Part shown: positions 28,340 to 48,693 of the stretch, one piece after another | Position numbering within the stretch: position 1 is the stretch's first letter | Layout of the letters: each line of letters starts with the position of its first letter | Source: a virus | Virus record (IMG/VR): IMGVR_UViG_3300002026_002465 | Location: 64,001 to 128,000 of that record | Strand: one strand, 5' to 3' | Length of the DNA stretch: 64,000 bases | Made by a program: the position numbers and the translations under genes | The notes under the pieces: model-generated | Told to the model about the DNA's origin: nothing | What the model saw: the letters and a program-made list of their open reading frames with translations, nothing else | Database searches by the model: none

Positions 28340-31024
28340 ATGCCACGTATTCGTTCGGAACAGATTGCTAATTTTGGAATTAGTGATTTGCAGATTGCTT
28401 TAAATGCAGCAATCCAACAATCAAAAATTGCTGATCAACTCGCAGACCCACAAGGTTGGATTAGTAAAGGAACAATGAATGTTGTTGATTCATTTTCAAC
28501 AAACACAGCAGGTTATCAAGAATTCGGCTTAACTATTTCACCAACAGATGATTCAGGATTAAGACAAGAAACTATTTATTATTTTGAAGTAAATAATAAA
28601 GAATATGCAATCGCAACACCAGCTTCTGCACTAACACACCAACAAGTAGTTGATCTTATGCAAGCAGAAATATCAGGTGATGGTCTTGTTATTGCTATTG
28701 TAAACAATGATTATAGAATATCATCTGTTGCAACTGGATATGATAAAGTTGTTTTTATTAATCCAAATTGTACAAGACACCGCCTCCATGATTATTTAGT
28801 TGGATTTACATCATTTGAAAAACCAGTAAAGGGAACAGGAATTATATGGGGACCAGATCTTGCAGGAAGAATGTTCTTTGCTGCTGATACAAATGAAACA
28901 TATATTGGCGTAACAACCCAGCCATATTATCAATCATTAAGTGGTTCAGGTGCTGGTGAAAGTAAGATAACAACTGTTGTTGCTAATCAAGCTACAAACT
29001 GGAATGGAACTACTGCAACTATATTTAGATCTGAATATGGTTTTGCTCCTGATGGTTCAAATGTATTTGCATATTTAAACGGTCAATTATTACAATATGG
29101 TCCTGGTGGAAACAATGACTATCAAATTGAAATGGGAACTGGTACAGGTGGAGAGTATACTGATATCGTTTTAAATTCAAATTATAATATAACAGCAACA
29201 GATAAAGTAACGATGATAGTTTATATAAATAGTGAATTATCATCTTTTGCTACTAAGGCATATGTAAATAATAAATTTACAAATGGTGTAGAATTAAATG
29301 GTGATACAACAATTGATGGTAGTATTTTACCAGGACAGGGTGGATTATTTGATATTGGATCTACTACAGATACATGGAAAAACATATATCTTGGAGGATC
29401 AATTAAATTCTCACCAATAGGAACAGGTGACACAGCAGAAATTTATCATCAATTAGTTGGTGAAAACACTCAATTAAAATTCAAGATTGGTACTTCTGCT
29501 AATGATAAAATTATATTTGAAGATGAAAACAACACAGTAATTATGGCTATTGACGGTGAAGGTGGATGTACTATTCCTGGAAACTTAGTTGTTCAAGGAA
29601 CTACTACATATGCTAATGAAGATAATACAACTATAACAGATGCTGATTTTATTATTAAACAAGGTTCTGGTGATGGTGATGCTACATTCTCTGTAGAAAG
29701 AACAACAAATAACACTTCTATCAAATGGAATGATTCAATTGATAGATGGCAAGCTATTTATGGACCAACTGCTAATATAACTTCTACCATCCTTACAGAG
29801 GATGATTTGGTCAATGGAAAAAATCTTGATGCAAGATATGTTAATGAGAATCAAATTGTAGTATCAGGATCCACTGTAACTAGTGGTGCTGTAAAATATG
29901 CAGGATCATTTACTTCAGCCCCTCCTGATGGAGTTTTCTATGGTGGAACTATAAATCCAGATGCTCATGTAAGACTTAATTATGGTGGAGATTTATATGT
30001 ATCAGCTTTATATGCTGATGATATCTATGTTTCAGCAAGTTCACTTTATGTTAATGGTAAGAAAGCAATTGAAGATGATAATGATATAATGACATTCCGT
30101 GCTTCTGCTGATCAATCTATTCAAGTTAAAACAACTGGAACAGAAGGTGATATTGATTTAATATCAGTAGATAATATCACAGCAATTTCTGCTGGACACC
30201 TTGATTTCTCTATTTCAGGAACTAAAACTGGAAAAAATATATCATTTACAAACATTTCATCAGGTGGAGAAATTCAGTTTGCAGCAACTGGTAATAATGG
30301 AGTAATTCAAATACAAGCAGGTGGACCTCTTGCAGATGTTGTAAATATCAATACATCAGCAAATGCACCAACAGGAATAGGTAGACTTAACGTTGATGGT
30401 AATTTATATGCAACTGCATTTATTGGTAATATATCAACAGCTTCTAAACTTGAAACTGCAAGAACAATTTCATTATCAGGTGATACAACTGGTAGTATTA
30501 GTTTTGATGGATCTACGGATAAAGATATTGTAGTTTCAGTTAATAAAATAAGAGGTATTGCTTGTAATACTACAACAACTGATCCTACTGGAGCTAATAG
30601 ACTTAATATTGAAGGTTATGTTTATGCAACTAGAGTTTATAATGCAGTTTGGAATGACTTGGCAGAATTTATGCCTAAGGCAAAAGATTCAATGGCAGGT
30701 GATGTTATTATAATGACTTCATCTGGTGTTGCTCCTTCTGTTGCAAGGGCTCAAAAAGCAGTTGTTGGTGTTAATTCAGATACATATGGTTATATCCTTG
30801 GTGCTGAAGATCAAGAGAATAAAACACCAATTGGTCTTGCCGGTAGAGTTCAAGTTAAAGTTAAAGAAAAGTTAGAGATTGGTGATTTATTAGTAAGTGA
30901 TGAAGATGGTTTTGCTACTAAGGCAACGGCTGAAGAAGAAATGAGAGCTAGTATAATAATTGGAAAAGTTCTTGAAGAAAAAACAGATACAAATGTTTCA
31001 AGAATTTGGATGCTTATAAAATAA
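28340..31024 (+). CDS. tail fibre/spike with C-terminal intramolecular chaperone (peptidase G2/IMC-like) domain
   Basis: AGGAGG SD; C-terminal NAVWNDLAEFM...GDVI...VVGV.S...GLAGRVQVKV...GDLLVS...GFA...IIGKVLE is the D(Y/L)AE autocleaving chaperone pattern; LETARTISLSGD.TGS.SFDGS fibre motif. Confidence 0.8.
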   Translation: MPRIRSEQIANFGISDLQIALNAAIQQSKIADQLADPQGWISKGTMNVVDSFSTNTAGYQEFGLTISPTDDSGLRQETIYYFEVNNKEYAIATPASALTHQQVVDLMQAEISGDGLVIAIVNNDYRISSVATGYDKVVFINPNCTRHRLHDYLVGFTSFEKPVKGTGIIWGPDLAGRMFFAADTNETYIGVTTQPYYQSLSGSGAGESKITTVVANQATNWNGTTATIFRSEYGFAPDGSNVFAYLNGQLLQYGPGGNNDYQIEMGTGTGGEYTDIVLNSNYNITATDKVTMIVYINSELSSFATKAYVNNKFTNGVELNGDTTIDGSILPGQGGLFDIGSTTDTWKNIYLGGSIKFSPIGTGDTAEIYHQLVGENTQLKFKIGTSANDKIIFEDENNTVIMAIDGEGGCTIPGNLVVQGTTTYANEDNTTITDADFIIKQGSGDGDATFSVERTTNNTSIKWNDSIDRWQAIYGPTANITSTILTEDDLVNGKNLDARYVNENQIVVSGSTVTSGAVKYAGSFTSAPPDGVFYGGTINPDAHVRLNYGGDLYVSALYADDIYVSASSLYVNGKKAIEDDNDIMTFRASADQSIQVKTTGTEGDIDLISVDNITAISAGHLDFSISGTKTGKNISFTNISSGGEIQFAATGNNGVIQIQAGGPLADVVNINTSANAPTGIGRLNVDGNLYATAFIGNISTASKLETARTISLSGDTTGSISFDGSTDKDIVVSVNKIRGIACNTTTTDPTGANRLNIEGYVYATRVYNAVWNDLAEFMPKAKDSMAGDVIIMTSSGVAPSVARAQKAVVGVNSDTYGYILGAEDQENKTPIGLAGRVQVKVKEKLEIGDLLVSDEDGFATKATAEEEMRASIIIGKVLEEKTDTNVSRIWMLIK

Positions 31025-31085: not shown

Positions 31086-32186
31086 TTACGAATAGAATAT
31101 TTTTCTATCTCCTGATAAATACTTTAATTTATAGTTTTCTATCATTGAATCTTGAAGAAAATAAAATTGATTTAAATGATAATACTCGTTCAGTTCAATT
31201 TGTCTATAAAATGTTTTTAATCCTTGCCATGAATTAGAGTGTTTACCTAGACCTAAAACAGAATTTAAATATCCATTAATATTATTAGGCTTATCGAAAT
31301 AAATAAAGTTAAAATTAAAATCATAATTTTTTCTTAAAAAATTATAAAAATTTTCATTTGTTATATCTTTTTCATAATCATATTTATTGTTTTCTAATAT
31401 ATTTTTTAGTAATTTATCAATATAATTTATTTTTACATCTCTAAGTTTATTTTCAGCAAAATCATTATGAAATGTTGTTGTGAGTTTACTATATACAGTT
31501 ATTTTAGGAATATCAAGATTAGATAAGAAATTAAAATCATTTATCAATGTTTGATTGCTTTGATCTGAAAGCCCAGCCATTAAATCAACATTAATAATAT
31601 GCTTTTTATTTTTAAATTTATTAATAATATGTCTTAGTCTTTTTTCAATTATTTCTATTGACGGGTTAAATCTGTCTTCTGACGTTAAAGGTTGTGGACT
31701 TAATGATTGAATTCCTATACTTACTCTATTTATAAAATTAGAATCTGCTAAAAAATCTATTTTATCTTCAGTAAGAGTAGAGATACTTGTTTCAAAACTA
31801 TATATATTGTTGTTCATATCTAAATTAAAATTAGATTTTATCATATCAAACAATCTTTTCATTTGATATGGCTGGAGTAGTGATGCAGTCCCTCCACCTA
31901 TATAAAGAGACTTAAATACTTGATTCTTAAATAATGGTGAATACTCTTTCATTTGTAGTTCTAAATTATTTAAATAATCATTTATTTGTTCTTCATTTTT
32001 ATATAAATCTACAAAATAAATACAATATTTACATTGATGTAAACAAAATGGAATTTTTATAAATAATGATAAATAATCATATTCATTTTTTGTTTCAAAA
32101 TAATCATTCCATAATTCATATATTTGTTCTTTTGAAAGAGAATTTTCTTCTGAATCTTGTTGATAATCTGTTTTTAATTCTAACAC
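31086..32186 (-). CDS. HemN-like (class C) radical SAM enzyme
   Basis: FIKIPFCLHQCKYC (CxxxCxxC), YIGGGTAS, RVSIGIQS, INVDLMAGL. Confidence 0.85.
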   Translation of the reverse strand: MLELKTDYQQDSEENSLSKEQIYELWNDYFETKNEYDYLSLFIKIPFCLHQCKYCIYFVDLYKNEEQINDYLNNLELQMKEYSPLFKNQVFKSLYIGGGTASLLQPYQMKRLFDMIKSNFNLDMNNNIYSFETSISTLTEDKIDFLADSNFINRVSIGIQSLSPQPLTSEDRFNPSIEIIEKRLRHIINKFKNKKHIINVDLMAGLSDQSNQTLINDFNFLSNLDIPKITVYSKLTTTFHNDFAENKLRDVKINYIDKLLKNILENNKYDYEKDITNENFYNFLRKNYDFNFNFIYFDKPNNINGYLNSVLGLGKHSNSWQGLKTFYRQIELNEYYHLNQFYFLQDSMIENYKLKYLSGDRKIFYS

Positions 32187-33100
32187 TTAAATTCCTTGAG
32201 TGCATTATCTATATCATTTTCAATAAAAAAATTAGATTTATAATTTCTATATTTTTCTATTCCTGAATTACAATCCAATACTGAATAATTATATTTTTTA
32301 TCTAAAACTTCTTTCATTATTTCATATACTAATCCTTCATCATAAACATGATGAAGTGCATCTTTATATACCAAAGCATTTGGATATATTTTTTCTATAG
32401 AATCTTTATTATAATCAGTATATTGCACTTCTATTAAATTTAAATGGGATATACCTATTTTATCAAATATTTCAAGATGTGATAACAATAAATCCTTGTG
32501 CAAAGGCCATGATGGTTCTTCTATTGTTATAATAAATCCCATTTCTTTTGCATCATACAAATAGTCAAAAACTTTTTTAGAAAAACCACTTGCACTTATG
32601 TGCACTCTAAGTTCTTGAATATTCATATTCTTTAATATTAATAAATTTTCTTTATTTAATAACAATCCATTAGTATAAATATGTTTGTAAATATTGTAAT
32701 TATTATTTGATTCTATTTTTGAAAGTAATTTTGAAAATTCTTCATATTCATTTAAATATAATAATGACTCTCCCCATGTATTAAATGATACTGTTTTTGG
32801 TTTGAAATTTAAATCTAAACTCTTTTTATATAATTCTTTAATTTCAGTTTTTGGAATATCATTGAAATAATCAAGCATTTCATTGTCAATATTATTATAA
32901 TAACACATTGGACATTTTAATTGACATTTAGTTCCAACATGAATAGCAAATGATTGATTTGTTTTAAAACAAGATATACATCCTGGAGATATTTTTCCTA
33001 TGTGAATGCAATCACCATTTACATGCTTTTCAAGTTCTGGTATAGATTTTTGAGATTCTAATTTTTTCTGGAAAATATCACTATAAGATACTATTTTCAT
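32180..33100 (-). CDS. radical SAM enzyme (GKISPGCxxC subtype, COG2108-like)
   Basis: GKISPGCISCF plus CQLKCPMC; HIYTNG; start at ATG 33100 coupled ATGA to the upstream stop. Confidence 0.85.
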   Translation of the reverse strand: MKIVSYSDIFQKKLESQKSIPELEKHVNGDCIHIGKISPGCISCFKTNQSFAIHVGTKCQLKCPMCYYNNIDNEMLDYFNDIPKTEIKELYKKSLDLNFKPKTVSFNTWGESLLYLNEYEEFSKLLSKIESNNNYNIYKHIYTNGLLLNKENLLILKNMNIQELRVHISASGFSKKVFDYLYDAKEMGFIITIEEPSWPLHKDLLLSHLEIFDKIGISHLNLIEVQYTDYNKDSIEKIYPNALVYKDALHHVYDEGLVYEIMKEVLDKKYNYSVLDCNSGIEKYRNYKSNFFIENDIDNALKEFKC

Positions 33101-34629
33101 GTTTTTTCGCCACAAATAACTAAAGCACTAAACTCACCAACATTGAATATATTTTCTATATTATATTTTTCTTTCGTTTTGATTAATCTATCTTCTATAA
33201 AATTTTTGTCAAAAATAACACCATTGTTAAAAACATTATAAATTAATATTATTTTTCCAGAAAATTTATTTTGTTTATATAATTTATATCTAAAATCAAA
33301 TTCATCTAGTGTGTTGTCAATGCCTGCATTAAGAATATAATCAAATTTATGATGATCAATAATACAGTCTTCATCATTGATTGTAAAATTAATTTTCGAT
33401 CCATTAAAAGTTTTTAAAATATTTGCTATTTTAATAGAAGTTTCATCAATATCAAATCCATGTATTAATATATTTGGAAACACTTCTTCTAGAATAAATG
33501 AATTTGTGCCATTATTACAGCAAATATCTAGAATTTTACTTCCAGATTTAATATCTAATTGTTTAAGCAATAATTTTCTAGCACTGTAAGATTGAATATC
33601 ACAGTCAAATAATATTTCATTGTTTAAAATAATAGGTGAAACAAGTTTATTATTCTCTTTTGAATATTTTAATAAATCTAAAATATCTTTTTTATATTCT
33701 ATTGGATAAATATCTAATTCATTTTGATAAAGATCAACATATTCTTTCCAAACACCTAAACATTTATTGTTATATACACATCTTAAACATTCTTGAGGTT
33801 TTTTAAAGTCATATTTAACCATCTCTTTAAAGTCACCATCAGGTTCATAGCCTGGATTGTCATTTACAAGTTCTATACATCTATCATATGATGAATATGA
33901 TTGATATTCTTCTAATGATCCTTCAATTTGATGTTTAAAACCTTGTAAATAACATGGAGGGAAGGCACTTGTATATATTTTATAATAATATTTACTTAAA
34001 ATATTATGAACAATATCTTTTAAGTCTGAATATTTTGGAACAACATTGTAAAAATCAGCCAATGCATTTCCCATAGCATGAGGAAATGTTAAACTTGAAT
34101 TATCAACATTTAACATATGAAAGAAATCAAATGTTTTTTCAAGTGATAATAAATTATATTTTGATATAACCGTTTGTGTTTGTATTTTAAATTTATCAGA
34201 TTTTAAATTAATTAGATTTGATAGTCCATTCAATGTATCATCCCATGAACCTTCTTTTTGACAAATAAAATCGTGTTCTACTTTATCAAAAGAATGTATA
34301 GCTACAAGAAAAGAATCTACATATTTTACAAGTTCTTTTGTAAGATTTATATCTTTAAGTCCAGTGCCATTTGTTTGTAGATCTATAGTGCAACTTGGAT
34401 TTATCTTTTTTATATATTGAACCATATCAACTAAATCTGGCCTTATTGTTGGTTCACCCCCTGTGATAGTGAATTTATCACATGTAGAGTATTTGTCTAT
34501 TATATTTTTCAATTCATCAAGAGAAAAATCAGGTCTATGTGTATATTGTTTTTTATCTGAAACAACACAATGAACACAATTATGATTACAATTCCAGCCC
34601 ACTTTTAAATCAATATGACTTTCTAACAT
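33097..34629 (-). CDS. radical SAM enzyme with Cys-rich auxiliary motif fused to a class I methyltransferase-like domain
   Basis: CNHNCVHC, TGGEPT, LQTNGT, KPQECLRCVYNNKCLGVWKEY; C-terminal GSKILDICCNNGT...IHGFDIDE (SAM-binding motifs I/II-like). Confidence 0.85.
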   Translation of the reverse strand: MLESHIDLKVGWNCNHNCVHCVVSDKKQYTHRPDFSLDELKNIIDKYSTCDKFTITGGEPTIRPDLVDMVQYIKKINPSCTIDLQTNGTGLKDINLTKELVKYVDSFLVAIHSFDKVEHDFICQKEGSWDDTLNGLSNLINLKSDKFKIQTQTVISKYNLLSLEKTFDFFHMLNVDNSSLTFPHAMGNALADFYNVVPKYSDLKDIVHNILSKYYYKIYTSAFPPCYLQGFKHQIEGSLEEYQSYSSYDRCIELVNDNPGYEPDGDFKEMVKYDFKKPQECLRCVYNNKCLGVWKEYVDLYQNELDIYPIEYKKDILDLLKYSKENNKLVSPIILNNEILFDCDIQSYSARKLLLKQLDIKSGSKILDICCNNGTNSFILEEVFPNILIHGFDIDETSIKIANILKTFNGSKINFTINDEDCIIDHHKFDYILNAGIDNTLDEFDFRYKLYKQNKFSGKIILIYNVFNNGVIFDKNFIEDRLIKTKEKYNIENIFNVGEFSALVICGEKT

Positions 34630-34639
34630 TAATTAATCC

Positions 34640-35101
34640 TTATAATGACTTTACGTATTCTATTGCTTTTTCCATATTAAAAAACATTACATCTTTTTTT
34701 GTATATTCATACATGTTATCTTCAATATAATTAAATTCTGGTATTAATGCTTTTTCTTTTTTAATGTCGAAAGTATCATCCTGTTTAGGATTACTTTTAT
34801 CAAAATACTCTTTAAATTTATTAAAATTATTAACTTCAATTGTTTTTATTGAACTATCAAATATAAGTTTCCACCTTGTTTTTACCATTTCAAATTTATC
34901 ATCATCTTTCAGAAAGTTTTTTACTGTCATAATGTCATATACTGTTGGACAGTCTTGTTGTATTATTATTATTTTATTTAAAAGCTCTTTGTAATTATCG
35001 TTTATTACAATATCAATATGACTTTTTATAACTTCATCAATACCATAGCCTATATTATTAATTAAATAAGCGTTTTTTATTTCCTCTCCATTATAATTCA
35101 T
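34640..35101 (-). CDS. hypothetical accessory protein (paralog of 43251-43709)
   Basis: GGAGG SD; shares IDx(V/I)IxDN(Y/F)xE and FD....EVx..xKxK segments with 43251-43709. Confidence 0.75.
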   Translation of the reverse strand: MNYNGEEIKNAYLINNIGYGIDEVIKSHIDIVINDNYKELLNKIIIIQQDCPTVYDIMTVKNFLKDDDKFEMVKTRWKLIFDSSIKTIEVNNFNKFKEYFDKSNPKQDDTFDIKKEKALIPEFNYIEDNMYEYTKKDVMFFNMEKAIEYVKSL

Positions 35102-35999
35102 TGTTTACCTCCCAATTTAAAAATACATTTGTTACAGGTTTTAAAAATTTATCATCATAAATATAATAATAAGATTTATGAATTCCAAGACAATATTCAA
35201 AATGTGTGCATTTTTCACAATTAAAATGAAAAACATTTTCTTTAAATAAATCTCTTATTTGTTTTATTCCATTTTCTTTTTTCAAAGAAGCTAAAATCCA
35301 ATTATATTCTATAGAATATTTAACAAGATTTTTTAATTCACATATAGGAATATATGCTATTCTATATTTACTTTTATCTCTTGAATTACTAATTATAGTA
35401 TTTAATATATTATATACATCACCATATAAAGGTAAAAATTTTTGTATTTCACTTATATCAGCATTAAATGGATTATATACTTTAAAAAAAATATCAGCAT
35501 TTGGCCATTTTGAACTTACATAAGAATTCCATTCCTCCATAGAATCTAAATTTATTTTATTTACAACAACTCCAATTGTTATTTCTTTAAATTTATAATT
35601 ATAAATTTTATCTATTAATTGTATTTTTTCTTTATAAAATACTCTATTACAAAGTTTATCATGTATTTCTTCAATGTGACTATCTAAAGATGTAGATATT
35701 GATATCTTAGATATGTCTCTTTTAATAAACTCATCAAAAAAAGCATTATCATTAAATTTTAATAAATTACTTATCACAAGTATATTATCAAACTTATTTA
35801 GACAAATATCTAATATTTCAAAAAAATCTGGTCTTATAGTTGGTTCACCACCTGTAATAGTTATATTACTACTTTCACATTTAATAATATCTATTTGTTT
35901 TAAAATATCATTTGAAGATGGAATTGGAGAGTTTTTTTCTCCACAGAACTCACAATCTAAATTGCATATTCCACCCAAATTAATATCATTAACAATCAT
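35091..35999 (-). CDS. radical SAM enzyme with C-terminal CxxC-x4/5-C motif
   Basis: CNLDCEFC, TGGEPTIRPD, YIPIC, CEKCTHFEYCLGIHKSY; immediately downstream of the putative substrate gene. Confidence 0.85.
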   Translation of the reverse strand: MIVNDINLGGICNLDCEFCGEKNSPIPSSNDILKQIDIIKCESSNITITGGEPTIRPDFFEILDICLNKFDNILVISNLLKFNDNAFFDEFIKRDISKISISTSLDSHIEEIHDKLCNRVFYKEKIQLIDKIYNYKFKEITIGVVVNKINLDSMEEWNSYVSSKWPNADIFFKVYNPFNADISEIQKFLPLYGDVYNILNTIISNSRDKSKYRIAYIPICELKNLVKYSIEYNWILASLKKENGIKQIRDLFKENVFHFNCEKCTHFEYCLGIHKSYYYIYDDKFLKPVTNVFLNWEVNNEL

Positions 36000-36658
36000 A
36001 GATTATCTTGATATGTTGCTGGATTAGTGAATACATTTAAATATGTTAAATTAGCATATGCTGTTGCTGTGTTTAAATGACTACTTCCTGTATTAGAATG
36101 ATTTCCATGATTTCTATGGCATGTATAACTTCTAGTATTTGAACTATGTGAGTTGCTATGATTTTGATAACCATTAAGATATGATGGTGCAGGACTATCT
36201 GTATAGTTTGAATAATTAGCATAGGCAGCTACTTGTTTAAGTCTTGTAGCAATTTCATCTATTTTTGATTTTGTAATTACTTCTCCTTCTACAACAGGCC
36301 CAACTGATCCTAACATCCCCATTTCTGACATTTCATCTAATAACCCTGAATATGTTCCATTTATTACACCACTTTGTTCATTAAGATGTTCTTGTTCAAT
36401 TATTTCACTATCTGCAACTTCAGTATCTGAAACACGAGTATATGTTGGAGATCCTGCATACCCAAACTGTATTTTTACAGCTTTTGCATGTTGTCTAAGC
36501 TGTTTTAATGTTTCACCATCTAATTTTGTATCTGCTTTTACTGTTCCATCAGCATTAAAATATGTTGAGTTAAACGGTAAATCTAATGGCCATTTTTTAG
36601 CGGAGTCATCAATTTCAGTAGCTGCATTTGAATAATTTGCGTAATTTACATATCCCAT
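35996..36658 (-). CDS. putative radical-SAM substrate (RiPP-precursor-like), 220 aa, with (Y/H)-X-N repeat tail
   Basis: AAGGAG SD then ATG 36658 (MGYVNYANYSN...). C-terminal YANYSNYTD..YLNGYQNHSNSHSS..HRNHGNHSN..HLN..YAN..YLN.FTN..YQD. It is the only low-complexity peptide-like gene amid 11 radical SAM genes. Substrate role is inference. Confidence 0.75.
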   Translation of the reverse strand: MGYVNYANYSNAATEIDDSAKKWPLDLPFNSTYFNADGTVKADTKLDGETLKQLRQHAKAVKIQFGYAGSPTYTRVSDTEVADSEIIEQEHLNEQSGVINGTYSGLLDEMSEMGMLGSVGPVVEGEVITKSKIDEIATRLKQVAAYANYSNYTDSPAPSYLNGYQNHSNSHSSNTRSYTCHRNHGNHSNTGSSHLNTATAYANLTYLNVFTNPATYQDNL

Positions 36659-36660
36659 AA

Positions 36661-37605
36661 CTATATCTCCTTTTTTAAGAATCCTAGGCATGGACCTGGA
36701 CACTCTTTGAATAAGAAACAACATTTTTTACATTCTTCAGGTAAACCTTGTGTCGAATATGCTAACCTTTTTCTAAGAAAAAGTTCATTTTCAACTGTAT
36801 TCAATAAAGAATGTTTATCCATATCAACTCTTATGTTTTCTCCTGGATAACAATATTGAACTTCTGATGGATTCAAAATATCAACTGGAATTCCATTTTC
36901 ACAACCATATTTGAACCCTTCAAGCCATTCTAATAAAAATGTTTTTACAGTATTATCTTTGATCATACACGGATAAATTCCGCAATCTAGATTAAATTTT
37001 ACTTTATTTTTTATACCCCAATTAACAAAATCAATAATTCTATCAATATATTCATAATTATTAAAAAAATACATTTTACTATTAGTATCTTTTGGGTTTG
37101 GAAATGGTAAACTTATTCTTGCTCTACTAAACACATCACCTAATTTTTCCTTATACTTATTTAAATTATCTTCATAATATTTAAAATCATAATCAAGATT
37201 GATTGTATACCCTAATCTTATATTAGCATTAGTGTATTTAGATATTAATAGCATGTTTTCAGATGTTAAATCAAACTGTTGTTGAGATACTTCAGAAACA
37301 TTTATTAAAAATCCAAGATTTTTTTCACTTATAAAATCTATAATACTGTTTAAAATTTTTTCTCCAAAAATAAAATTGCTTATTAAAGTAATTTTATTTG
37401 GTAGTGTTTTCAAATAAGATAGTATTTCAACAAAATTTGAATTATTTGTTGGTTCACCACCTAAAAGAGATATGTTATTATTTACAGTCATTTTTTTTAC
37501 AATGTTTTTTACATCATCTAATGACATTTCACTTTTATCTAGAACATCTTTAGCAAAGCAAAAAGAGCATCCTTTATTACATGAAGTAGTTAAGATAAGA
37601 TTCAT
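36661..37605 (-). CDS. radical SAM enzyme with SPASM/twitch-like Cys motifs
   Basis: CNKGCSFC, LLGGEPT, LDCGIYPC, YCYP, CKKCCFLFKECPGPC. Confidence 0.85.
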   Translation of the reverse strand: MNLILTTSCNKGCSFCFAKDVLDKSEMSLDDVKNIVKKMTVNNNISLLGGEPTNNSNFVEILSYLKTLPNKITLISNFIFGEKILNSIIDFISEKNLGFLINVSEVSQQQFDLTSENMLLISKYTNANIRLGYTINLDYDFKYYEDNLNKYKEKLGDVFSRARISLPFPNPKDTNSKMYFFNNYEYIDRIIDFVNWGIKNKVKFNLDCGIYPCMIKDNTVKTFLLEWLEGFKYGCENGIPVDILNPSEVQYCYPGENIRVDMDKHSLLNTVENELFLRKRLAYSTQGLPEECKKCCFLFKECPGPCLGFLKKEI

Positions 37606-38800
37606 TTTTTATTTCATCCTTTAATAGTTCTGATATTTTTAGTCTATTTTTATTAAAAAACTCTGATAACCCTTTATTAAACTCACAAGTTGCATCATCA
37701 ATAATACCTTTTCCATATTTTTGATATGAAAAGCTTAAGCATCCATAATCGCAAAATGCTTGTGAAGAACAAAGATTACATTTTCTTTCTATAACTGCAT
37801 CTGCTTTTGATCTATGAAATTGCCACATTTTATGTGTATGTATTAATTCACCAACATCTTTAGACGTTACATTGCCTGATGATACATTATTACTTTTTTC
37901 AGAATTTCTACCACAAAAAAGAGTTGTTCCATCTGGTTCAACTTCTAATATTCCATTTCCAGCACCACAATATCTCGTATAGCATATATCTCCAACACTT
38001 ATTTCTTGACCAAAACTAATGTTTTCAATATATTTTTTCATTTTATTATATAGAGTTTCTTCTTTAAAGCCCTTATTGTCAAACATAAAATTAATTATTT
38101 TTATTGATGCTTCTAAATTTTCTTGTGCTGTTAACTCAAATTCACTTCCAGTATTTGCAACATCAACAGCCCTATTAATTTTAATAGAATTAAAACCCAT
38201 TGATTGTATCATTCTTAAATCATCAACTATTGTTAAATGATTTTGTTTGTGTAAAATAGATAATAAACCTGGTTGTAATCCATAACCTCTTAATTTTATT
38301 ATATTTTCTAATAATTTACCATTTGCATTCCTATTAGAATCAGAAATTCCAAACCCATCAAAACTCACTCCAGGACTTATATTATATCTTCTAAATATTC
38401 CAATCCATTCATCGTCAATTAAAGTGCCATTTGTTTGCAAAGATATTGCAAGCATTTTTCCATGCTCTCTTGCAAGTTGTGTTGCAATTTTACAAAATGC
38501 AGAAAACTTTTCTTTACCTATTTTTAGTGCTTCCCCTCCATGAAAAACTAAACTTAGTGGATTCCATTTTTGGAGATTTTCAGTTTTAGTATCAGAATTT
38601 AAAGCATCTATTAAACTTTGTTGAGATTCTATATTACCGTGAGATGTTTCTAAAAACCACCTTCTAATAGTATTCTCAAACACCTCATATGACATTGATT
38701 CTTCACTATAGTCATCTTTATGAAACACATAACAATATGAGCACCTTAAATTACACCCTCTTGTAACTTTTAGAATTACTTGTCTAGTATTTTGAAACAT
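37577..38800 (-). CDS. radical SAM/SPASM peptide-maturase-like enzyme
   Basis: KVTRGCNLRCSYC, FHGGE, LQTNGTLID, CYTRYCGAG, VEPDG..LFC, CNLCSSQAFCDYGC...C (full SPASM spacing; anSME/3-CyFE-like). Confidence 0.9.
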   Translation of the reverse strand: MFQNTRQVILKVTRGCNLRCSYCYVFHKDDYSEESMSYEVFENTIRRWFLETSHGNIESQQSLIDALNSDTKTENLQKWNPLSLVFHGGEALKIGKEKFSAFCKIATQLAREHGKMLAISLQTNGTLIDDEWIGIFRRYNISPGVSFDGFGISDSNRNANGKLLENIIKLRGYGLQPGLLSILHKQNHLTIVDDLRMIQSMGFNSIKINRAVDVANTGSEFELTAQENLEASIKIINFMFDNKGFKEETLYNKMKKYIENISFGQEISVGDICYTRYCGAGNGILEVEPDGTTLFCGRNSEKSNNVSSGNVTSKDVGELIHTHKMWQFHRSKADAVIERKCNLCSSQAFCDYGCLSFSYQKYGKGIIDDATCEFNKGLSEFFNKNRLKISELLKDEIKNESYLNYFM

Positions 38801-38801
38801 T

Positions 38802-39089
38802 TTATTCTCCTATTGTTTTATGCTCATTAAAACCAGATTCACCTATTGGATTTTCAGACTGAATTTTTTCAGATTCAGAAGTAAAATTTTCAATATGACC
38901 TATTAACCTATCAAAACAAACGTCACAATACAAAGATGTTGTTTTTCTACACATACTAGCATCCATTTCACTTTGATTTGTATTTGGGTCTTTAATCCAT
39001 GTTTTAAAATCTATAACTATTTCATGATAATATCTATTTTTATAGATGTTTTTACCACAACCGTCACATTCAACTACTGAGTATTTCAT
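38802..39089 (-). CDS. small CxxC...CxxC metal-binding protein (paralog of 45975-46199)
   Basis: VECDGCGKNI...IVIDFK...LYCDVCFDR; AGGAG SD. Confidence 0.75.
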   Translation of the reverse strand: MKYSVVECDGCGKNIYKNRYYHEIVIDFKTWIKDPNTNQSEMDASMCRKTTSLYCDVCFDRLIGHIENFTSESEKIQSENPIGESGFNEHKTIGE

Positions 39090-40123
39090 AATTTCTCCTT
39101 TGTGTATTCATTAAATTCATCTTCTAATATTTTAATTCCAACCATTATAGAGCAAAAAACATCTCTTGATTCTTTAAACGCTGCATAACATCCTGTTCTA
39201 CAAAAATCTTTTGCTTTACAATCTTCACATGTTTTATCATAAAAATCATTTGATTTAATTTTATCATAATTTGTAACATTAAATTTCATATTAGGAAAAT
39301 CATTAAGATTTAAATATATTTTTTTCTTATCATATTCTAGACCACAATGGGATATTTCACCAGATGGAAAAACTGAAAAAGATAGATGTTTATCAAGACA
39401 GTATTGCTTATTTTTAGTTATAAAATTTAAAAAATCTAAACTGCCAAACTCCAATGCTGTTTTAGCAAATTGTTTTAATAGTGTTTGAACAAAATTCTTT
39501 GCATCTTTTTTAGGTGAAAAGAAATCTATTGAAGTTGAGTGTTCTAATTTTAATGAGTCAAGAAACTTTTTATCTTCTAAAAAAGATCCAGCATTATTTT
39601 CTGATATTGTCCTATTAATAAAAACTTTATTTGGAAATATAGATGCAAACGTCATTAGATTGTTTATTGTTTTATTAAATGATCCTAATCCTCTAACCTT
39701 ATCATGAGTGATTTCACTACTATCTAATGATATGCTTATTTCACTATACATTGCTCCCATAAATTCAATTTGTTCTTTACTATAATCTAAAGTTAAATTT
39801 GTAACAAGAGATAATTCACAGTTTGGTATAGACTTTAATATTAATGTATAATTATAAAAATATTGCCAGTCTAATGTGGGCTCGCCACCATTTATTAAAA
39901 TATGTAATGTATTATCAGGGTGTCTATACATATTAATCATTTGTGTAAAATTATAAAAATTTTCTATTGAAAGCTTTTCTTTTGTATTTTTATGAAATTT
40001 ATTTTCATTATTTTTATGCACACAATAATTACAATTTAAATTACAATCAAAAGATGGAAATATAGTAACATCATCTATTCTTATTTCATTTTTTATAGGA
40101 TTATCAACCTCAAAATAGCTCAT
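39086..40123 (-). CDS. radical SAM/SPASM enzyme
   Basis: CNLNCNYC, INGGEPT, ISLDS...HDKVRG.GSF, CLDK...VFPSGEISHC, CEDCKAKDFCRTGCYA...C. Confidence 0.9.
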   Translation of the reverse strand: MSYFEVDNPIKNEIRIDDVTIFPSFDCNLNCNYCVHKNNENKFHKNTKEKLSIENFYNFTQMINMYRHPDNTLHILINGGEPTLDWQYFYNYTLILKSIPNCELSLVTNLTLDYSKEQIEFMGAMYSEISISLDSSEITHDKVRGLGSFNKTINNLMTFASIFPNKVFINRTISENNAGSFLEDKKFLDSLKLEHSTSIDFFSPKKDAKNFVQTLLKQFAKTALEFGSLDFLNFITKNKQYCLDKHLSFSVFPSGEISHCGLEYDKKKIYLNLNDFPNMKFNVTNYDKIKSNDFYDKTCEDCKAKDFCRTGCYAAFKESRDVFCSIMVGIKILEDEFNEYTKEKL

Positions 40124-41058
40124 TTTTTCTCCTTATCAACCATATTTTTAAAATCATTTTCATCATCAAGAACCTCATTTCTATTTACAATATATCTTGC
40201 TCTAACTGTATCGGAGTTACAATCAAGAACTGAAAATTTATAATTTTTATTTATTACCTCTTCCATTATATCATATACAAGACCTTCATCATATAGATGA
40301 TAGTTTAGATTTTTATACATTCTTCCTTCTGGATAAATAGAATTTACTTTTTGAATATTCATTGGAGTTATATCTATTTCATCTAAATTTAAATGTTTGA
40401 CCCCAATAGAATCAAAAAGTTTAATTGCTTCAAACAACTTATCTCTATTGAGCATCCATGATGGTTCTTCTACTGTTACTCTAAATCCATTTTTTGCTGC
40501 ATGTTCCATGTTATTATATACTTTAATTGAAAAATCACTTGCACTTATATGAAATCTTATTTCTTCAATATCTAAATCTTTTAATATTTGAGTGTTATTC
40601 ATATCATATAAAATACCTGTAGTGTATATTCTTTTATGAATATTAATATTTCTTTTTGTTTCAATCTGTTTGATAATTTTTGAGGTTGATAAATAATGTT
40701 CTAAATATAAAAAAGGCTCTCCAATTGAATTATAACATATATTTGATGGAGAGTAATTCTCATCAAAAAGTTTTGAATAATAAAATTCATTTGTATTTAT
40801 AATATCTTTCTCTATTGATTTACTTTCATCAGTATTATTGTGTAATGTTGTGTAATAACACATTGGACATTGAAATGGACATTTATTTCCAATAAAAATA
40901 CTTTTTCTACATGCCTTTTCAGTAAAACATCCTTCACATCCTGGAGATATTTTGCCTATATGAGAAGCAAAACCATTTGCATGAAGTATAAGATTTGGTA
41001 TGTTTTTTTGTCTTAAATATTTTTCATTTAATATAGTTCTGAAATCAACTAAAATCAT
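40120..41058 (-). CDS. radical SAM enzyme (GKISPGCxxC subtype; paralog of 32180-33100)
   Basis: GKISPGCEGCF, CPFQCPMCYY, EIRFHISASDFS, VEEPSW, LYDEGLVY all shared with 32180-33100. Confidence 0.85.
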   Translation of the reverse strand: MILVDFRTILNEKYLRQKNIPNLILHANGFASHIGKISPGCEGCFTEKACRKSIFIGNKCPFQCPMCYYTTLHNNTDESKSIEKDIINTNEFYYSKLFDENYSPSNICYNSIGEPFLYLEHYLSTSKIIKQIETKRNINIHKRIYTTGILYDMNNTQILKDLDIEEIRFHISASDFSIKVYNNMEHAAKNGFRVTVEEPSWMLNRDKLFEAIKLFDSIGVKHLNLDEIDITPMNIQKVNSIYPEGRMYKNLNYHLYDEGLVYDIMEEVINKNYKFSVLDCNSDTVRARYIVNRNEVLDDENDFKNMVDKEKK

Positions 41059-41849
41059 GGTATCCTTTTAAAAACACTTGTATTCATTTCAAGAAAATTA
41101 AATTGTGTGCTTCCTTCATAAGAAGGATTTAACAATCTATCAACATCACTGCTCCAATAAAATATTGAATTTGTTCTATTTTTTGAAAAATAGAGATTGC
41201 TCATTATATCTAAAGTTTCATAGCTGGATATATACCAGTTTATATTTTTATAAATCTTATTATCATAAAATTTATTTTGATTATTTACTTCAACATCTCT
41301 TAGGATGATATAATTAAATTTATCAATAATACTTTCTAATAATGTATAATCTTCTTGAGAATATTTAATAAGAGGAATTTCTAATACTGAATTAGATACA
41401 ATATATTTATAATTAAAATCACTCTGAAAAGTATATCTAGTTTCATTTAAGTTAGGATAAATACCATCACTATTAACATATCCAAATGTGTATGTAGATT
41501 CATTTAATAAATCATTATATTCATTTATATAATTAAATGTTTTTATATCAGCATAACCATTTACTGATACAATATGAGGAGATGATTTATTAATTCTAAC
41601 ATAATTAGAAAGATTTTCTAATCTCCACGTTATATGGTCTGATAATTTAGAATTATAATAATTTGCATAATATTGCACTTCTAATAAATATTGAATATAT
41701 TCAGACTTTGGTATAGAGAAAAAGTCTATAAAAGAATAAGGAATATTACCTTTATAAATACAATACCCTGAGTAGTCAGAAATATATGGATATTTTAATA
41801 TAGTCTTATATTTATTTATAAATTCATCTTGAAAATTAATTTTAATCAT
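41055..41849 (-). CDS. degenerate (cluster-less) paralog of the GKISPGC-type radical SAM enzymes
   Basis: N-terminus (YCIYKGNIP vs CIHIGKISP) and central segments (SDF..K, V.EIP, LRDVEV..N) align by eye with 40120/32180, but no CxxxCxxC. Confidence 0.5.
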   Translation of the reverse strand: MIKINFQDEFINKYKTILKYPYISDYSGYCIYKGNIPYSFIDFFSIPKSEYIQYLLEVQYYANYYNSKLSDHITWRLENLSNYVRINKSSPHIVSVNGYADIKTFNYINEYNDLLNESTYTFGYVNSDGIYPNLNETRYTFQSDFNYKYIVSNSVLEIPLIKYSQEDYTLLESIIDKFNYIILRDVEVNNQNKFYDNKIYKNINWYISSYETLDIMSNLYFSKNRTNSIFYWSSDVDRLLNPSYEGSTQFNFLEMNTSVFKRIP

Positions 41850-41868
41850 TGTTATATTAACTATGCTT

Positions 41869-43185
41869 TTATTTTGAATTAATTATATTCAAAAACTCAT
41901 TAGTTTTATCTAATAATTGCGTATTAAAGTATTCTCCTTTTGATTGAATATTAATATTCAAATTTTTTTTATATTCAAATGTACCCTCATATTCTTTTAA
42001 ATATAGAAATGATTCGAATATATATAAATACAAACCACTTATATTAGGAATATTAGAAATATATTTAAAAAACTCAGTAATTATTTCAGAATCTGATTTA
42101 TAATCATTTATATCAAATTGTTTAAAATATACAGGCTCTTTATTTTTATAAACTTCAATATATTGAAAATCTTGACCTATTTTAGAATAAATATCCACAA
42201 TGTTTTTCATTCTACCAGGTTTAATCTTATTTTCTATTTTAGAACCTATACCTAAAATAGAAAATGTTGGTTCAGATTTTAATATATCATCTTGACTTTT
42301 ATACTGTGGATATATCTTATTTATAAATAAATTTAAAGGTATTGTATTTTTTATTAAATTTACCTTATTAAACTCTCGTAAAATATTAAAAATTTTTTCA
42401 TAAGACAAAGTTTCATCTTTAAATTTAAAAAGTCCAGATGGATAATATCCAAATTTTTTACAAAATTCTAAAATAAATATACAATATGTTTTATATAAAT
42501 CTTCTGATGGATATAATTCCTTATTATTTTTATCTGAAAAACTATAATCAATTGCTAAATTAATTTCATCTACACCCATGGAAGCAACATTAAACATATC
42601 ATAAATCATTTTTTCTACATGATCTTTTTCTTTCCAAAAGATTATAAAGTCGGTTAAAACATATATATTTTGTTTTTTAAAATCTGAAATAATTTTAGGA
42701 ATATTCTCATAATTTTTATATATCCTATTTTGCTTTTTTAAATATTCTTTATCAAAAGTCTGTATACAAAGAATAATAGAGTTAAAGTTGTATTCGCCAA
42801 GAAGTAACGATTGTTCTTCTATATAAGCAGACGGATGAATTTCCATTAGTTTTGATTCTATTTGTTTAAAATTTGGAATTTTTTCAAAAACCATTCTCAT
42901 GTCATCTATAGACATAATATTAGCCGTTCCGCCACCAAAACAATATGTTTCAATTTCTGAATTCGCAATTATATTAGAATAAAAATCAATTTGAGATATT
43001 AAATATGTAATATAATCTTGATATTTAGTACTTTCTTCATAATTTTGAGATATTATTGAACCATGAAAAGGACAATATAAGCAATTAGTGAAGCAAAATG
43101 GATTATGCACATAAACTCTTACAGGAGTGTTATTAAACTCCCATAAATCTAAAATAGATTCTTTTAATATTTCTTGTAGTTTCAT
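41869..43185 (-). CDS. HemN-like (class C) radical SAM enzyme
   Basis: VYVHNPFCFTNCLYC, CFGGGTA, MEIHP, ILCIQTF, ILGIGS. Confidence 0.85.
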   Translation of the reverse strand: MKLQEILKESILDLWEFNNTPVRVYVHNPFCFTNCLYCPFHGSIISQNYEESTKYQDYITYLISQIDFYSNIIANSEIETYCFGGGTANIMSIDDMRMVFEKIPNFKQIESKLMEIHPSAYIEEQSLLLGEYNFNSIILCIQTFDKEYLKKQNRIYKNYENIPKIISDFKKQNIYVLTDFIIFWKEKDHVEKMIYDMFNVASMGVDEINLAIDYSFSDKNNKELYPSEDLYKTYCIFILEFCKKFGYYPSGLFKFKDETLSYEKIFNILREFNKVNLIKNTIPLNLFINKIYPQYKSQDDILKSEPTFSILGIGSKIENKIKPGRMKNIVDIYSKIGQDFQYIEVYKNKEPVYFKQFDINDYKSDSEIITEFFKYISNIPNISGLYLYIFESFLYLKEYEGTFEYKKNLNINIQSKGEYFNTQLLDKTNEFLNIINSK

Positions 43186-43194
43186 TATAAGAAA

Positions 43195-43220
43195 TATGCT
43201 TTTTCAAATGAAAAAGCATA
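43195..43220. promoter_or_regulatory. perfect 12-bp inverted repeat in the divergent promoter of the radical SAM island
   Basis: TATGCTTTTTCA-AA-TGAAAAAGCATA in the 65-bp gap between divergent starts 43185(-) and 43251(+). Confidence 0.6.
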
Positions 43221-43250
43221 AATTTATGTTTTTTTTCATAAGATAATAAT

Positions 43251-43709
43251 ATGATAAAAATAACAACTATTGATAATATATATGAAGTGCTGCAAGATAC
43301 TACAAGTGTTGAAGAAAGATGTGAAATTGCTATAAAATTAATTGATACTATTATTAAAGATAATTTCAATGAGTATTATATAATTTTTTTAGATAATTAT
43401 AACGTTCCAGTTCAGTGGAGTGATTTTGAGAATTTTTGTATAAAAGAAAATTTAGATTTTGATAAATATAAAAAGTTGACTAATCAATGTTTCGATAAAG
43501 CAACATTATATTTAGAAGTTGTTGATCTAGAAAAAATAAAAATCAACTACCCAAAGGATAAATTTCCAAAAGATGTAAATAACTACACTCCTTATGGATA
43601 TAGTAACTATCCAAATAGATTCAGAATTTATAATAGAGACATCGCCATGGATCTTATTAAAAACTACTCTCTACAAGAACTAGAAAAGTATAGTCATGAT
43701 TTATCATAA
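43251..43709 (+). CDS. hypothetical accessory protein (paralog of 34640-35101)
   Basis: 152 aa vs 153 aa; shared segments by eye; first gene of the rightward operon. Confidence 0.75.
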   Translation: MIKITTIDNIYEVLQDTTSVEERCEIAIKLIDTIIKDNFNEYYIIFLDNYNVPVQWSDFENFCIKENLDFDKYKKLTNQCFDKATLYLEVVDLEKIKINYPKDKFPKDVNNYTPYGYSNYPNRFRIYNRDIAMDLIKNYSLQELEKYSHDLS

Positions 43710-43746
43710 GTAAGGCATATTTTAGTAGTTAGTAATAGAGGTAAAA

Positions 43747-44718
43747 ATGCTTAAATGTTTAGATCTTGAAACGGAAAACACCAATGATTATTGGGGTTCA
43801 ATAATTATTTATGGGCACCAAAAATGTATGAATACTTGTTTGTTTTGTTCAGGTAAAAACGAATCAATTGATGATGATACTATAAAATATAAAAAAGCAA
43901 TTTATGATGCTGATTATTTAATAAGTAGTGGTGTAAATAAAATAGAAATATCTGGTGGAGATCCAGGTGAATTTAGTATGATTGTTGATGTTGTGTCTTA
44001 TTTAAAAACTAAAGGTATTAAAACAATTCAATTATCAACACACGGAAGAACTCTTATTAATGAAAATTTTGTAAAAAAATTAAAGGATGCAGGTGTTACT
44101 TTGTTTAAAATACCATTATATGGTAGCACACAAGAAATACATAATAAAAGTGTCCAGGTTGATAATTCAATAGATAATGCTTTTTCAGACACAATTACAG
44201 GTATTAAAAATTGTAATAAACATGGCATGAGTATAATAGGATATATTTTATTAAATCAATATAATAAAAATGATATTACAAATATAGTAAGATTATATTT
44301 AAGCATCTCAAATTATATTTATAAAATAATAATAGGAATAACATTTATTTCAACTGTTGAATATAGTTATACAAGAGATTGGTTTTTACCAATAAAAGAT
44401 ATGAAACCATATCTTGAAGATATATTGATTGAATTTTCTAAAAATAATATAAATTTTGAGATGATTGATATTCCTTATTGTGCTATTGGTAAGTATTCTG
44501 AAAATATAGATAATAGACTTATTTTTCCAAATCTTGGAAATCATAAAGTAGAAGAACAAAATAGATCAACAATTTCAGATTTTATTCCTCATTATAGAAT
44601 TAAATCATATTTTAATGAATGTAATTCTTGTAACTTAAAAAATCTATGTAGTGGTATTCCAATCAATGAAATTAAAATGTTTGGAATATATGGACTTGAA
44701 GGAGTTGGAAGTGTTTAG
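43747..44718 (+). CDS. radical SAM enzyme with C-terminal CxxC-x5-C motif
   Basis: CMNTCLFC, ISGGDPG, LSTHGR, DIPYC, CNSCNLKNLCSGI; GAGG SD. Confidence 0.85.
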   Translation: MLKCLDLETENTNDYWGSIIIYGHQKCMNTCLFCSGKNESIDDDTIKYKKAIYDADYLISSGVNKIEISGGDPGEFSMIVDVVSYLKTKGIKTIQLSTHGRTLINENFVKKLKDAGVTLFKIPLYGSTQEIHNKSVQVDNSIDNAFSDTITGIKNCNKHGMSIIGYILLNQYNKNDITNIVRLYLSISNYIYKIIIGITFISTVEYSYTRDWFLPIKDMKPYLEDILIEFSKNNINFEMIDIPYCAIGKYSENIDNRLIFPNLGNHKVEEQNRSTISDFIPHYRIKSYFNECNSCNLKNLCSGIPINEIKMFGIYGLEGVGSV

Positions 44719-45973: not shown

Positions 45974-45974
45974 C

Positions 45975-46199
45975 ATGAATAAAAATTATTGTACTAGATG
46001 TAAAAATGAAATTATAGATATGGCAATTATAGTTGATTTTAAAATAAGTGTTGGAAGAGTAAAAAATAGTGGAATATTTGAAAACATTCCAAATCTTGAA
46101 AACAACTCAAGAGAAGTTTTATGTGATGATTGTTTTAACAAGTTTTCACTTTTAATGGAAGGCTTAAATATAAAATACAATAAAAAAGTGGAGAATTAA
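45975..46199 (+). CDS. small CxxC...CxxC metal-binding protein (paralog of 38802-39089)
   Basis: NYCTRCKNEI...IIVDFK...VLCDDCFNKF; AAGGA SD. Confidence 0.75.
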   Translation: MNKNYCTRCKNEIIDMAIIVDFKISVGRVKNSGIFENIPNLENNSREVLCDDCFNKFSLLMEGLNIKYNKKVEN

Positions 46200-48660: not shown

Positions 48661-48693
48661 ATGGAAAAATATATTTTGATTAAGAGGTAAATA

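Follow-up and report, generated by a model that had tools for sequence, protein, structure and literature searches.

The window considered here, a stretch of 64,000 nucleotides (nt), corresponds to bases 64001-128000 of the 177,948-bp IMG/VR virus record IMGVR_UViG_3300002026_002465, the guanine-cytosine (GC) content of which is 29%. Between its tail-fibre and baseplate genes lies an island of 15 kb whose two arms diverge, one of them occupying 31086-43185 of the minus strand and the other 43251-46199 of the plus strand, and all 11 matches of the 178-kb genome to the radical S-adenosylmethionine (radical-SAM) family PF04055 fall within 31086-45973. The subject of the present analysis is a protein of 220 amino acids (aa) encoded in the left arm, in which triads of an aromatic residue, a variable residue and mainly Asn are found at both ends of a predicted helical core, and which is the putative substrate of the surrounding enzymes. 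Its parts, taken from the open reading frame (ORF), its translation and, for the core, an AlphaFold2 model, are the following:

35996-36658, minus strand: gene of the 220-aa putative substrate, with a short triad-bearing N-terminus, a helical core and a triad-rich C-terminal tail
36626-36652, minus strand: N-terminal echo of the array, YVN-YAN-YSN, residues 3-11
36224-36610, minus strand: central folded helical domain, residues ~17-145, with conserved motifs such as LRQHAKA, GLLD and ITK.KI
35999-36223, minus strand: C-terminal tail, residues 146-220, with 14 [YHFW]-x-[ND] triads, HSS, the conserved C180 and the end motif YQDNL

The translation begins MGYVNYANYSN. This start is backed by an AAGGAG located 8 nt upstream, by the TAG stop of the upstream enzyme gene, which lies 2 nt before the ATG, and by the homologues, whose first residues coincide with it. 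The TGA stop overlaps the ATG of the downstream radical-SAM gene (ATGA), and with this spacing and overlap the gene is translationally coupled to both flanking enzyme genes. The protein has no match in the Pfam, NCBIfam or PHROG families.

The last 77 residues of the protein contain 15 [Y/H/F]-x-[N/D/S] triads, in the order YAN, YSN, YTD, YLN, YQN, HSN, HSS, HRN, HGN, HSN, HLN, YAN, YLN, FTN and YQD. All of them had been listed in an earlier first-pass annotation of this DNA and are confirmed by the translation; composition-preserving shuffles of the tail yield 5.5±1.7 triads, and none of 20,000 reaches 15. That the third position is mainly Asn rather than Ser, as that annotation had also stated, is borne out by the strict [YHF]-x-N pattern, which occurs 12 times in the tail as compared to 2.9±1.4 in the shuffles. 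The reported repetition of the pattern at the N-terminus is likewise found, YANYSN being present at residues 6-11 and again at residues 146-151. The 178-kb genome has 238 ORFs of 80 aa or more, and when these are ranked by their triad count per 75 residues, the protein comes first with 14, the runner-up having 9, the 99th percentile being 7.6 and the median 2. The array is thus not merely a reflection of the Asn and Tyr richness of a genome of 29% GC, because the protein is an outlier within that genome and relatives encoded at 46-48% GC keep the array. A second triad-rich ORF, G000:C1:59137-59667, which is located before the start of the window, was also considered and was set aside, as it encodes an acidic W/F-x-D protein that is unrelated to this family.

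A word-based search returned three relatives with 36-54% identity, and an exhaustive profile search of 1.8 billion protein representatives gave 14 clusters at E≤1e-3; the family is very small, with about 16 relatives. The comparison of triads with linkers that the first-pass annotation had suggested was made in alignments of 4, 8 and 16 sequences, for which the figures are given here in that order. The first position of the triads is aromatic in 91, 81 and 75% and the third is N, D or S in 91, 80 and 72%, whereas the identity is 46, 29 and 23% at the second position and 38, 27 and 22% in the linkers, such that the triads are kept while the linkers drift. The identity of the folded core (45, 37 and 29%) is also below the retention of the triads. 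Poor conservation of the triads, which would have told against the significance of the array, is therefore not what we find, since the first and third positions are kept in 72-91%. Y149, N151, Y164, Y201, Y206 and Y216 are invariant in all 16 sequences, and Y146 and N148 are likewise listed as invariant across the relatives. Every relative with a delimitable tail is enriched in triads against its own shuffles (p≤0.011; for most, 0 of 2,000-20,000), and nearly all relatives open with M-(G/S/A/P/T) followed by Y/H-x-N triads. In distant relatives, an N-terminal aromatic-x-Asn/Asp array of ~100-150 aa, often with Cys, is followed by a helical middle and a short C-terminal array. Together with the outlier rank of the protein in its genome, these alignments support the triads as its conserved and selected feature. 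Back-translated patterns detected no relatives in the IMG/VR and JGI contigs, and no longer or fused form of the protein was found, the latter being weak evidence.

In the AlphaFold2 model, calculated with the 16-sequence alignment, most of residues 20-145 have a predicted local distance difference test (pLDDT) score of ~70-90, which drops at residues 67-76, while the triad-bearing ends are of low confidence (pLDDT <50 for residues 1-16 and 150-209). No convincing fold match of the core was obtained: the Foldseek hits in the PDB and BFVD have E>0.7, and the best Z in VIA is 5.3, for a generic helical arrangement. Selected residues that reside, as here, in segments predicted to be disordered are expected of sites that an enzyme recognizes or modifies, rather than of sites that serve a fold.

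The genes that share the island with the putative substrate are listed below, where the letters denote the types of the radical-SAM enzymes:

31086-32186, minus strand: HemN-like (class C-type) radical-SAM enzyme, 366 aa; STM4012, ChuW/HutW and HemZ at 1e-37 to 1e-28, below the cut-offs
32180-33115, minus strand: B-type radical-SAM enzyme, 311 aa; PF04055, 45% identical to the H-type paralogue
33097-34629, minus strand: C-type radical-SAM enzyme, 510 aa, HxsC4-like and with a fused class I methyltransferase; HxsC4 at 2.1e-34 and Methyltransf_31
34640-35101, minus strand: accessory protein, 153 aa; no family match at E≤1
35091-35999, minus strand: D-type, HxsC-like radical-SAM enzyme, 302 aa; HxsC at 2.4e-16, 59.5 bits against a cut-off of 267.9
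36661-37605, minus strand: E-type radical-SAM enzyme, 314 aa, directly upstream of the putative substrate and its proposed core partner; PF04055
37577-38800, minus strand: F-type radical-SAM/SPASM enzyme, 407 aa, candidate cross-linker; PF04055 and PF13186
38802-39089, minus strand: small 4-Cys (CxxC...CxxC) protein, 95 aa, adjoining the SPASM gene; four Cys invariant in the alignment
39086-40123, minus strand: G-type radical-SAM enzyme, 345 aa; PF04055
40120-41058, minus strand: H-type radical-SAM enzyme, 312 aa, paralogue of the B-type; weak PF04055 match, 19.7 bits
41055-41849, minus strand: 264-aa protein, no family match; a 267-aa gene is in the same place in the P0003-encoding contig
41869-43185, minus strand: another HemN-like radical-SAM enzyme, 438 aa, with which the left arm begins
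43251-43709, plus strand: right-arm accessory protein, 152 aa; no NCBIfam match at E≤1
43747-44718, plus strand: right-arm HxsC-like enzyme
44651-45973, plus strand: right-arm SPASM enzyme, 31% identical to the F-type; YhhB at 3.1e-28, with QhpD second at 3.3e-28
45975-46199, plus strand: right-arm small 4-Cys protein

Three enzymes of the island are thus HxsC- or HxsC4-like and two are HemN-like. The right arm has no substrate of its own. The possibilities that the 264-aa protein is a paralogue of the neighbouring enzyme (BLASTP E 0.17) and that the two accessory proteins are paralogues of each other (BLASTP E 0.63) were considered and are unsupported.

A search with the E-type enzyme yielded 31 IMG/VR loci and 6 genome-bin loci, the ORFs of which were typed against the window proteins; L numbers denote related loci. 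The contigs that carry the module span 24-48% GC, and the recurring module consists of the G-type, 4-Cys, SPASM and E-type genes. A G-type orthologue heads the module in L005-L010, L014 and L017, and the adjacency of the 4-Cys and SPASM genes is kept in L005, L007, L008, L009, L010, L014, L015 and L017. In L003, L005, L006 and L008 the order is SPASM, E-type, substrate, with the E-type orthologue directly preceding the substrate gene, which accordingly takes the position after the E-type gene in L005, L006 and L008 as it does in the window. The same module is present in L009, L010, L014, L015 and L017; the substrate gene lies between the G-type and 4-Cys genes in L009, L010, L014 and L017, and in L015 two copies follow an F-like radical-SAM gene and the G-type gene follows the E-type. 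In the proteins of these five loci, a helical middle is flanked by triad arrays on either side, and the protein of L009 is homologous to the core of the family (hhalign probability 89%, E 2.6e-6). In L007, the same enzymes are paired with a protein that shares only Y-x-N stretches, its core being not recognisably homologous. The P0003-encoding contig (10.7 kb) contains the whole left arm in order, with an HxsC4-like enzyme that has no methyltransferase domain, a 141-aa gene at the position of the accessory protein of 34640-35101 and an inserted lipase-family gene. In L002, the substrate gene adjoins a C-type enzyme that also has no methyltransferase. In the P0017-encoding contig, two radical-SAM genes are followed by the substrate gene, a 353-aa gene, gp25 and a gene of a 757-aa protein.

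Repeat proteins of another kind are also encoded beside related E-type enzymes. In L019, a 388-kb relative, the genomic slot of the island is taken by a 309-aa protein (L019:5968-6897, plus strand) with CxxxC-type repeats in its C-terminal two thirds, which adjoins an E-type and a SPASM gene, and this slot is flanked by a tail fibre, KdsA/KdsB and gp25. In L016, a 222-aa protein with a Cys-rich tail (L016:7317-7985, plus strand) is encoded just upstream of the E-type gene. That related E-type enzymes occur with different repeat-tail proteins argues for repeat ends and enzymes being matched pairs, and it looks as if repeat types were exchanged in the form of a cassette.

A number of further observations were made in these loci. 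At 29-1828 on its minus strand, L005 encodes a protein of 599 aa, one end of which is a huge array of Cys repeats, with a faint match to the Pfam family of CXXX-repeat radical-SAM targets; another radical-SAM gene is only a few genes away. In L018:4076-11409, about ten paralogous small proteins (113-195 aa) that begin MK(I/L)R.GF(V/I)SNSS.SSF surround the E-type gene, and their shared N-terminus may be another N-terminal substrate motif. L011:2768-6223 and L024:3531-5784 contain pairs of similar 369-576-aa proteins that end in QSSGHCGWR(E/N), with one copy ending in QSSAICGWRQ, ~1.8-2.2 kb upstream of distant E-type radical-SAM genes. On the 80-kb contig of L007 (32% GC), the gene after the module (4-Cys, SPASM and E-type) encodes an ankyrin-repeat protein of 400 aa, the N-terminus of which is hydrophobic (L007:11001-12203). 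Genes of a glycosyltransferase, of HlyIII and of a metallo-beta-lactamase fold are present on this contig as well, and from this gene content the module may not be confined to phages. PHROG searches with the neighbouring large proteins in L005 and L007 found nothing.

As to the affinities of the enzymes, the F-type protein exceeds the Pfam cut-offs for both of its domains (PF04055 40.0 bits against 29.5, PF13186 27.6 bits against 21.5), and the Cys pattern of its C-terminal auxiliary-cluster region is invariant in the alignment. Its NCBIfam matches are led by DynA (5.9e-31), followed by PapB, anSME, YhhB and XyeB, all below the equivalog cut-offs, and among proteins of solved structure it is nearest to ChlB (7.6e-8), a synthase of multiple cyclophanes. 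For each of the two SPASM enzymes, the cyclophane and daropeptide synthases (DynA, YhhB, XyeB, AmcB, FxsB and GrrM) provide the top match and a large share of the further matches, interspersed with PapB, anSME and QhpD. The model of the E-type enzyme (pLDDT 82) is nearest to SuiB, which is the top match, anSME, SkfB, TigE, PqqE and ChlB; the epimerases YydG/EpeE are also among its PDB relatives (1.3e-8; Foldseek 2e-6), behind SuiB, anSME and SkfB. The C-type enzyme scores 119 bits with HxsC4 against a cut-off of 500. Its methyltransferase domain has a generic class I fold, the best match of which is an OvoA-type His N-methyltransferase (E 8.8e-7), and the domain is missing from the readable orthologues (310 aa in L002, 316 aa in the P0003-encoding contig, 302 aa in L014 and 375 aa in L017), so that methylation is not a core step. 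The small 4-Cys proteins could be zinc-ribbon recognition partners or rubredoxin-like reductants.

The island is embedded in structural genes, with the following landmarks:

3863-6988, plus strand: tape-measure-like gene
28340-31024, plus strand: tail-fibre gene
46199-48270: KdsA, KdsB and a protein resembling fructose-6-phosphate aldolase/transaldolase, immediately ahead of the baseplate genes
48298-48660: gp25-like baseplate wedge gene

Downstream of the gp25-like gene follow a 757-aa wedge protein and a P2-I-like protein, the baseplate genes spanning 48298-53723, and the plus strand also carries very large structural ORFs. A 4,528-codon ORF begins at window position 57571 and runs past the window end (genome positions 121571-135157). 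The trio of KdsA, KdsB and aldolase-like genes, which L019 keeps in full and L014 and L017 in part, suggests that the host is Gram-negative or that Kdo serves as a decoration. Among cultured phages, T4-like cyanophages are the nearest, with ~25% identity in the baseplate wedge protein; a CP220-like Campylobacter phage, considered on account of the many radical-SAM genes, the genome of ~178 kb and the low GC content, was rejected in view of this. The right arm and gp25 each have the sequence GCATAAATT at 33-35 nt upstream (33 nt for gp25, at 48265), and these are 2 of only 3 copies in the genome. The divergent intergenic region of 65 bp (43186-43250) contains the inverted repeat ATGCTTTTTC-AAAT-GAAAAAGCAT, and a palindromic CATAAATTTATG in the same region serves both arms. 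The T4 late promoter TATAAATA was also considered and is uninformative, with 32 matches as compared to 21±5 expected.

What the genomes display is an array that is conserved and that is inherited together with the enzymes, and on this basis our favoured explanation is that a dedicated, protein-sized substrate is modified at both of its ends by the radical-SAM enzymes of the island, a reading that we hold with moderate confidence as a whole. The assignment of the 220-aa protein as the substrate is its firmest element and very probably correct to judge from its genomic setting, the protein being supported as the only plausible substrate of the island; that the triads are the modification sites is probable, given their pattern of conservation; and that cyclophane-type C-C links are formed at them is a tentative proposal, with the odds just short of even. 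In this scheme, the disordered ends of a leaderless 220-aa protein would carry Tyr/His/Phe-x-Asn(Asp) modification sites around a helical core, and the minimal conserved machinery would comprise the two enzymes of SPASM type (37577-38800) and E-type (36661-37605) together with the small 4-Cys protein. A hydrogen would be abstracted at Cβ of the third residue (Asn), after which a C-C bond would be formed to the ring of the first residue, giving a triceptide-like chain of three-residue cyclophanes. The three HxsC-like, the two HemN-like and the B-, G- and H-type enzymes, together with the methyltransferase domain, would provide lineage-specific tailoring. As neither a protease nor an exporter is encoded, the product would stay a protein, and from the conserved position of the genes it would act late, together with the tail-fibre or baseplate apparatus.

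Cyclophane-type i/i+2 chemistry is favoured because it is exactly the ring residue and the residue two positions on that are conserved. SPASM enzymes are known to form such i-to-i+2 rings, in which Trp or Phe is joined to Asn Cβ, Tyr to either Asp or Arg, and His to one of Ala, Arg and Ser; Tyr-x-Asn and His-x-Asn are absent from the ring pairs listed in these two papers (PMC11002830, PMC12912966). The first-pass suggestion that each triad could become a cyclophane is upheld as far as the conservation of the triads and the closeness of the SPASM enzymes to cyclophane synthases are concerned. Thioether formation, to which the one conserved Cys would be relevant, epimerisation or other reactions are possible.

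With regard to the role, a late and tail-linked one is favoured by the location of the island between the fibre and baseplate genes and by GCATAAATT being common to the right arm and gp25. In the same direction, tail-fibre homologues flank the module in L005, L007, L008, L015, L016, L017 and L019, and gp25 is near the substrate gene even in a distant relative (the P0017-encoding contig). A virion- or tail-associated function is a possibility that we put forward with some reserve. Still more speculative, and on balance rather unlikely, is the full picture of rigid, protease-proof cyclophane-chain termini on a tail or baseplate protein, built by up to 11 radical-SAM enzymes, serving adsorption or assembly and swapped between phages as cassettes according to the repeat type.

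The main rival is an exclusion or defence effector of the HXS kind, in which a phage-matured protein would block the DNA entry of competing phages. HxsA is indeed a protein with His-x-Ser, that is, aromatic-x-small, repeats that is matured by radical-SAM enzymes with a change of +8 Da and stops the entry of phage DNA (PMC13128918). Three island enzymes have HxsC or HxsC4 as the best or near-best match (2.1e-34, 2.2e-25 and 2.4e-16), HxsB is among the matches of the G-type and right-arm SPASM enzymes, and the accessory proteins adjoin HxsC-like genes as HxsD adjoins HxsC. However, all Hxs scores are 3-8 fold under the cut-offs, no HxsA match is found and the accessory proteins have no HxsD match (NCBIfam, E≤1). 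The N-terminus is hydrophilic, and inspection by eye shows nothing like a signal peptide in it; the family searches detected no peptidoglycan-binding domain, and the third triad position is Asn and not Ser. Furthermore, the conserved core of 4-Cys, SPASM and E-type genes differs from HxsB/C, the HxsC-like genes being the variable part across the relatives, and HXS systems are 99.7% from Pseudomonadota and have the fixed gene order D-B-C-A. We consider this explanation improbable.

Two other explanations are less probable still, and to a similar degree. According to the first, host or phage proteases would free the cross-linked termini, which would act upon lysis as antibacterial, signalling or metal-binding peptides, in the manner of RiPPs (peptides made by ribosomes and modified after translation). 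The enzymes do belong to RiPP-type maturase clans, the motifs are triceptide-like and the disordered ends are separable from the core, but the island and the related loci examined contain no protease, transporter or immunity gene, a folded core of 130 aa that is kept family-wide is atypical of a leader, and the motifs start directly after Met1, which leaves no leader for the N-terminal array. According to the second, the tail would function unmodified, by binding metals, carbohydrates or a receptor or by amyloid-like self-association, and the enzymes would act elsewhere. Segments rich in His, Tyr and Asn can bind metals and sugars, and modification is here deduced from genomes only. Against this, array and module are co-inherited across a wide divergence in sequence and GC content, even where no core homology is recognisable (L007), the island offers no other candidate substrate and its genes abut or overlap, and other genomes pair CxxxC-repeat or Cys-rich-tail proteins with a related E-type enzyme. 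The remaining alternative, raised in the first-pass annotation, is a proteusin-like route with epimerisation to D-residues and Asn N-methylation by the fused methyltransferase, as in polytheonamide, which is very unlikely and at best weakly supported by that fusion, the Asn-rich protein and the presence of YydG/EpeE among the many relatives of the E-type enzyme, since the methyltransferase is generic, closest to a His N-methyltransferase and missing from the orthologues named above, no NHLP or Nif11 leader is detected in family searches, none of the enzymes resembles an epimerase in particular, and a conserved aromatic residue and Asn two apart fit an i/i+2 reaction and not alternate epimerisation.

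Returning to the favoured explanation of a protein modified at both ends by the island enzymes, several points weigh against it. The modification, its chemistry and its role are all read from genomes, and in cultured-phage records no relative of the 220-aa protein or of the E-type enzyme was found. The family matches of the enzymes are far below the equivalog cut-offs, and PapB, anSME and QhpD, which stand for thioether or oxidation chemistry, score like the cyclophane synthases, so that more than one reaction type is conceivable. The triceptides characterised to date are set free by proteolysis from short precursors with a leader and a core (PMC12912966), unlike this two-ended protein of 220 aa. 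The island has a lower GC content and its strand is opposite to that of the structural genes, as in an inserted accessory cassette, and the position in the tail module may be synteny inherited among related phages, the baseplate protein of L019 being 71% identical.

Should the triads prove to be cross-linked, chemistry of the triceptide type, so far seen in small secreted peptides of bacteria, would reach a folded protein of a virus, the known ring-forming motifs would gain Tyr-x-Asn and His-x-Asn, and phages would be seen to spend ~15 kb on post-translational radical chemistry beside their host-recognition genes. The compact module of four genes (4-Cys, SPASM, E-type and substrate) is directly testable, and the natural substrate variants are available for enzyme discovery and for the engineering of poly-cyclophane proteins. 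In the papers searched, no phage system of this sort is described.

When compared with characterised systems, the island is not a true member of either the HXS or the triceptide class. With HXS it has in common a protein rather than a peptide as the modified species, aromatic-x-small repeats, several radical-SAM enzymes and a phage-related biology (PMC13128918). It differs in having no match to HxsA or HxsD (a role like that of HxsD being conceivable for the two accessory proteins), Asn in place of Ser, a different conserved core and a phage rather than a host as the encoding genome. The HxsC (TIGR03977) scores of its enzymes are 93.9, 89.1 and 59.5 bits against 267.9, and those with HxsB (TIGR03978) are at most 48.8 against 370.

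The QhpC/QhpD system is similar in that a SPASM enzyme introduces internal cross-links into a structural or functional protein subunit, the gamma subunit of quinohemoprotein amine dehydrogenase, and not into a secreted peptide. The links made by QhpD are thioethers from Cys to Asp or Glu, in a subunit that contains Cys, whereas the motif of the island is aromatic-x-Asn with a single conserved Cys. The streptide and darobactin/dynobactin maturases SuiB, DarE and DynA form C-C or C-O cross-links from aromatic rings to aliphatic carbons, and DynA is the top match of the F-type and SuiB that of the E-type enzyme. The targets of these enzymes are small peptides, each with a single short motif. SuiB relies on a recognition (RRE) domain at its N-terminus and has 440 aa as compared to 314 aa for the E-type enzyme, and no PqqD/RRE-type family is detected in the island.

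In its motif, the protein resembles the triceptides, considered here through the three-residue cyclophane-forming enzymes XncB/XyeB, OscB/GrrM, MscB, YxdB, HaaB, YhhB, MicB and ChlB, with repeated aromatic-x-X3 units in which Asn and Asp are known as X3 and Tyr and His as ring donors (PMC11002830, PMC12912966). The SPASM pair scores 50-99 bits with XyeB (TIGR04496), YhhB (NF041707), GrrM/OscB (TIGR04261), FxsB (TIGR04269) and AmcB (NF041718), for which the cut-offs are 310-450. In contrast to the triceptides, the putative substrate of the island has 220 aa, a folded core and arrays at both termini with up to ~18 triads; it has no leader, its motifs beginning at residue 3 and again at residue 146, and no protease accompanies it. 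The island system is, moreover, encoded by a phage beside its tail genes, with up to 11 radical-SAM genes.

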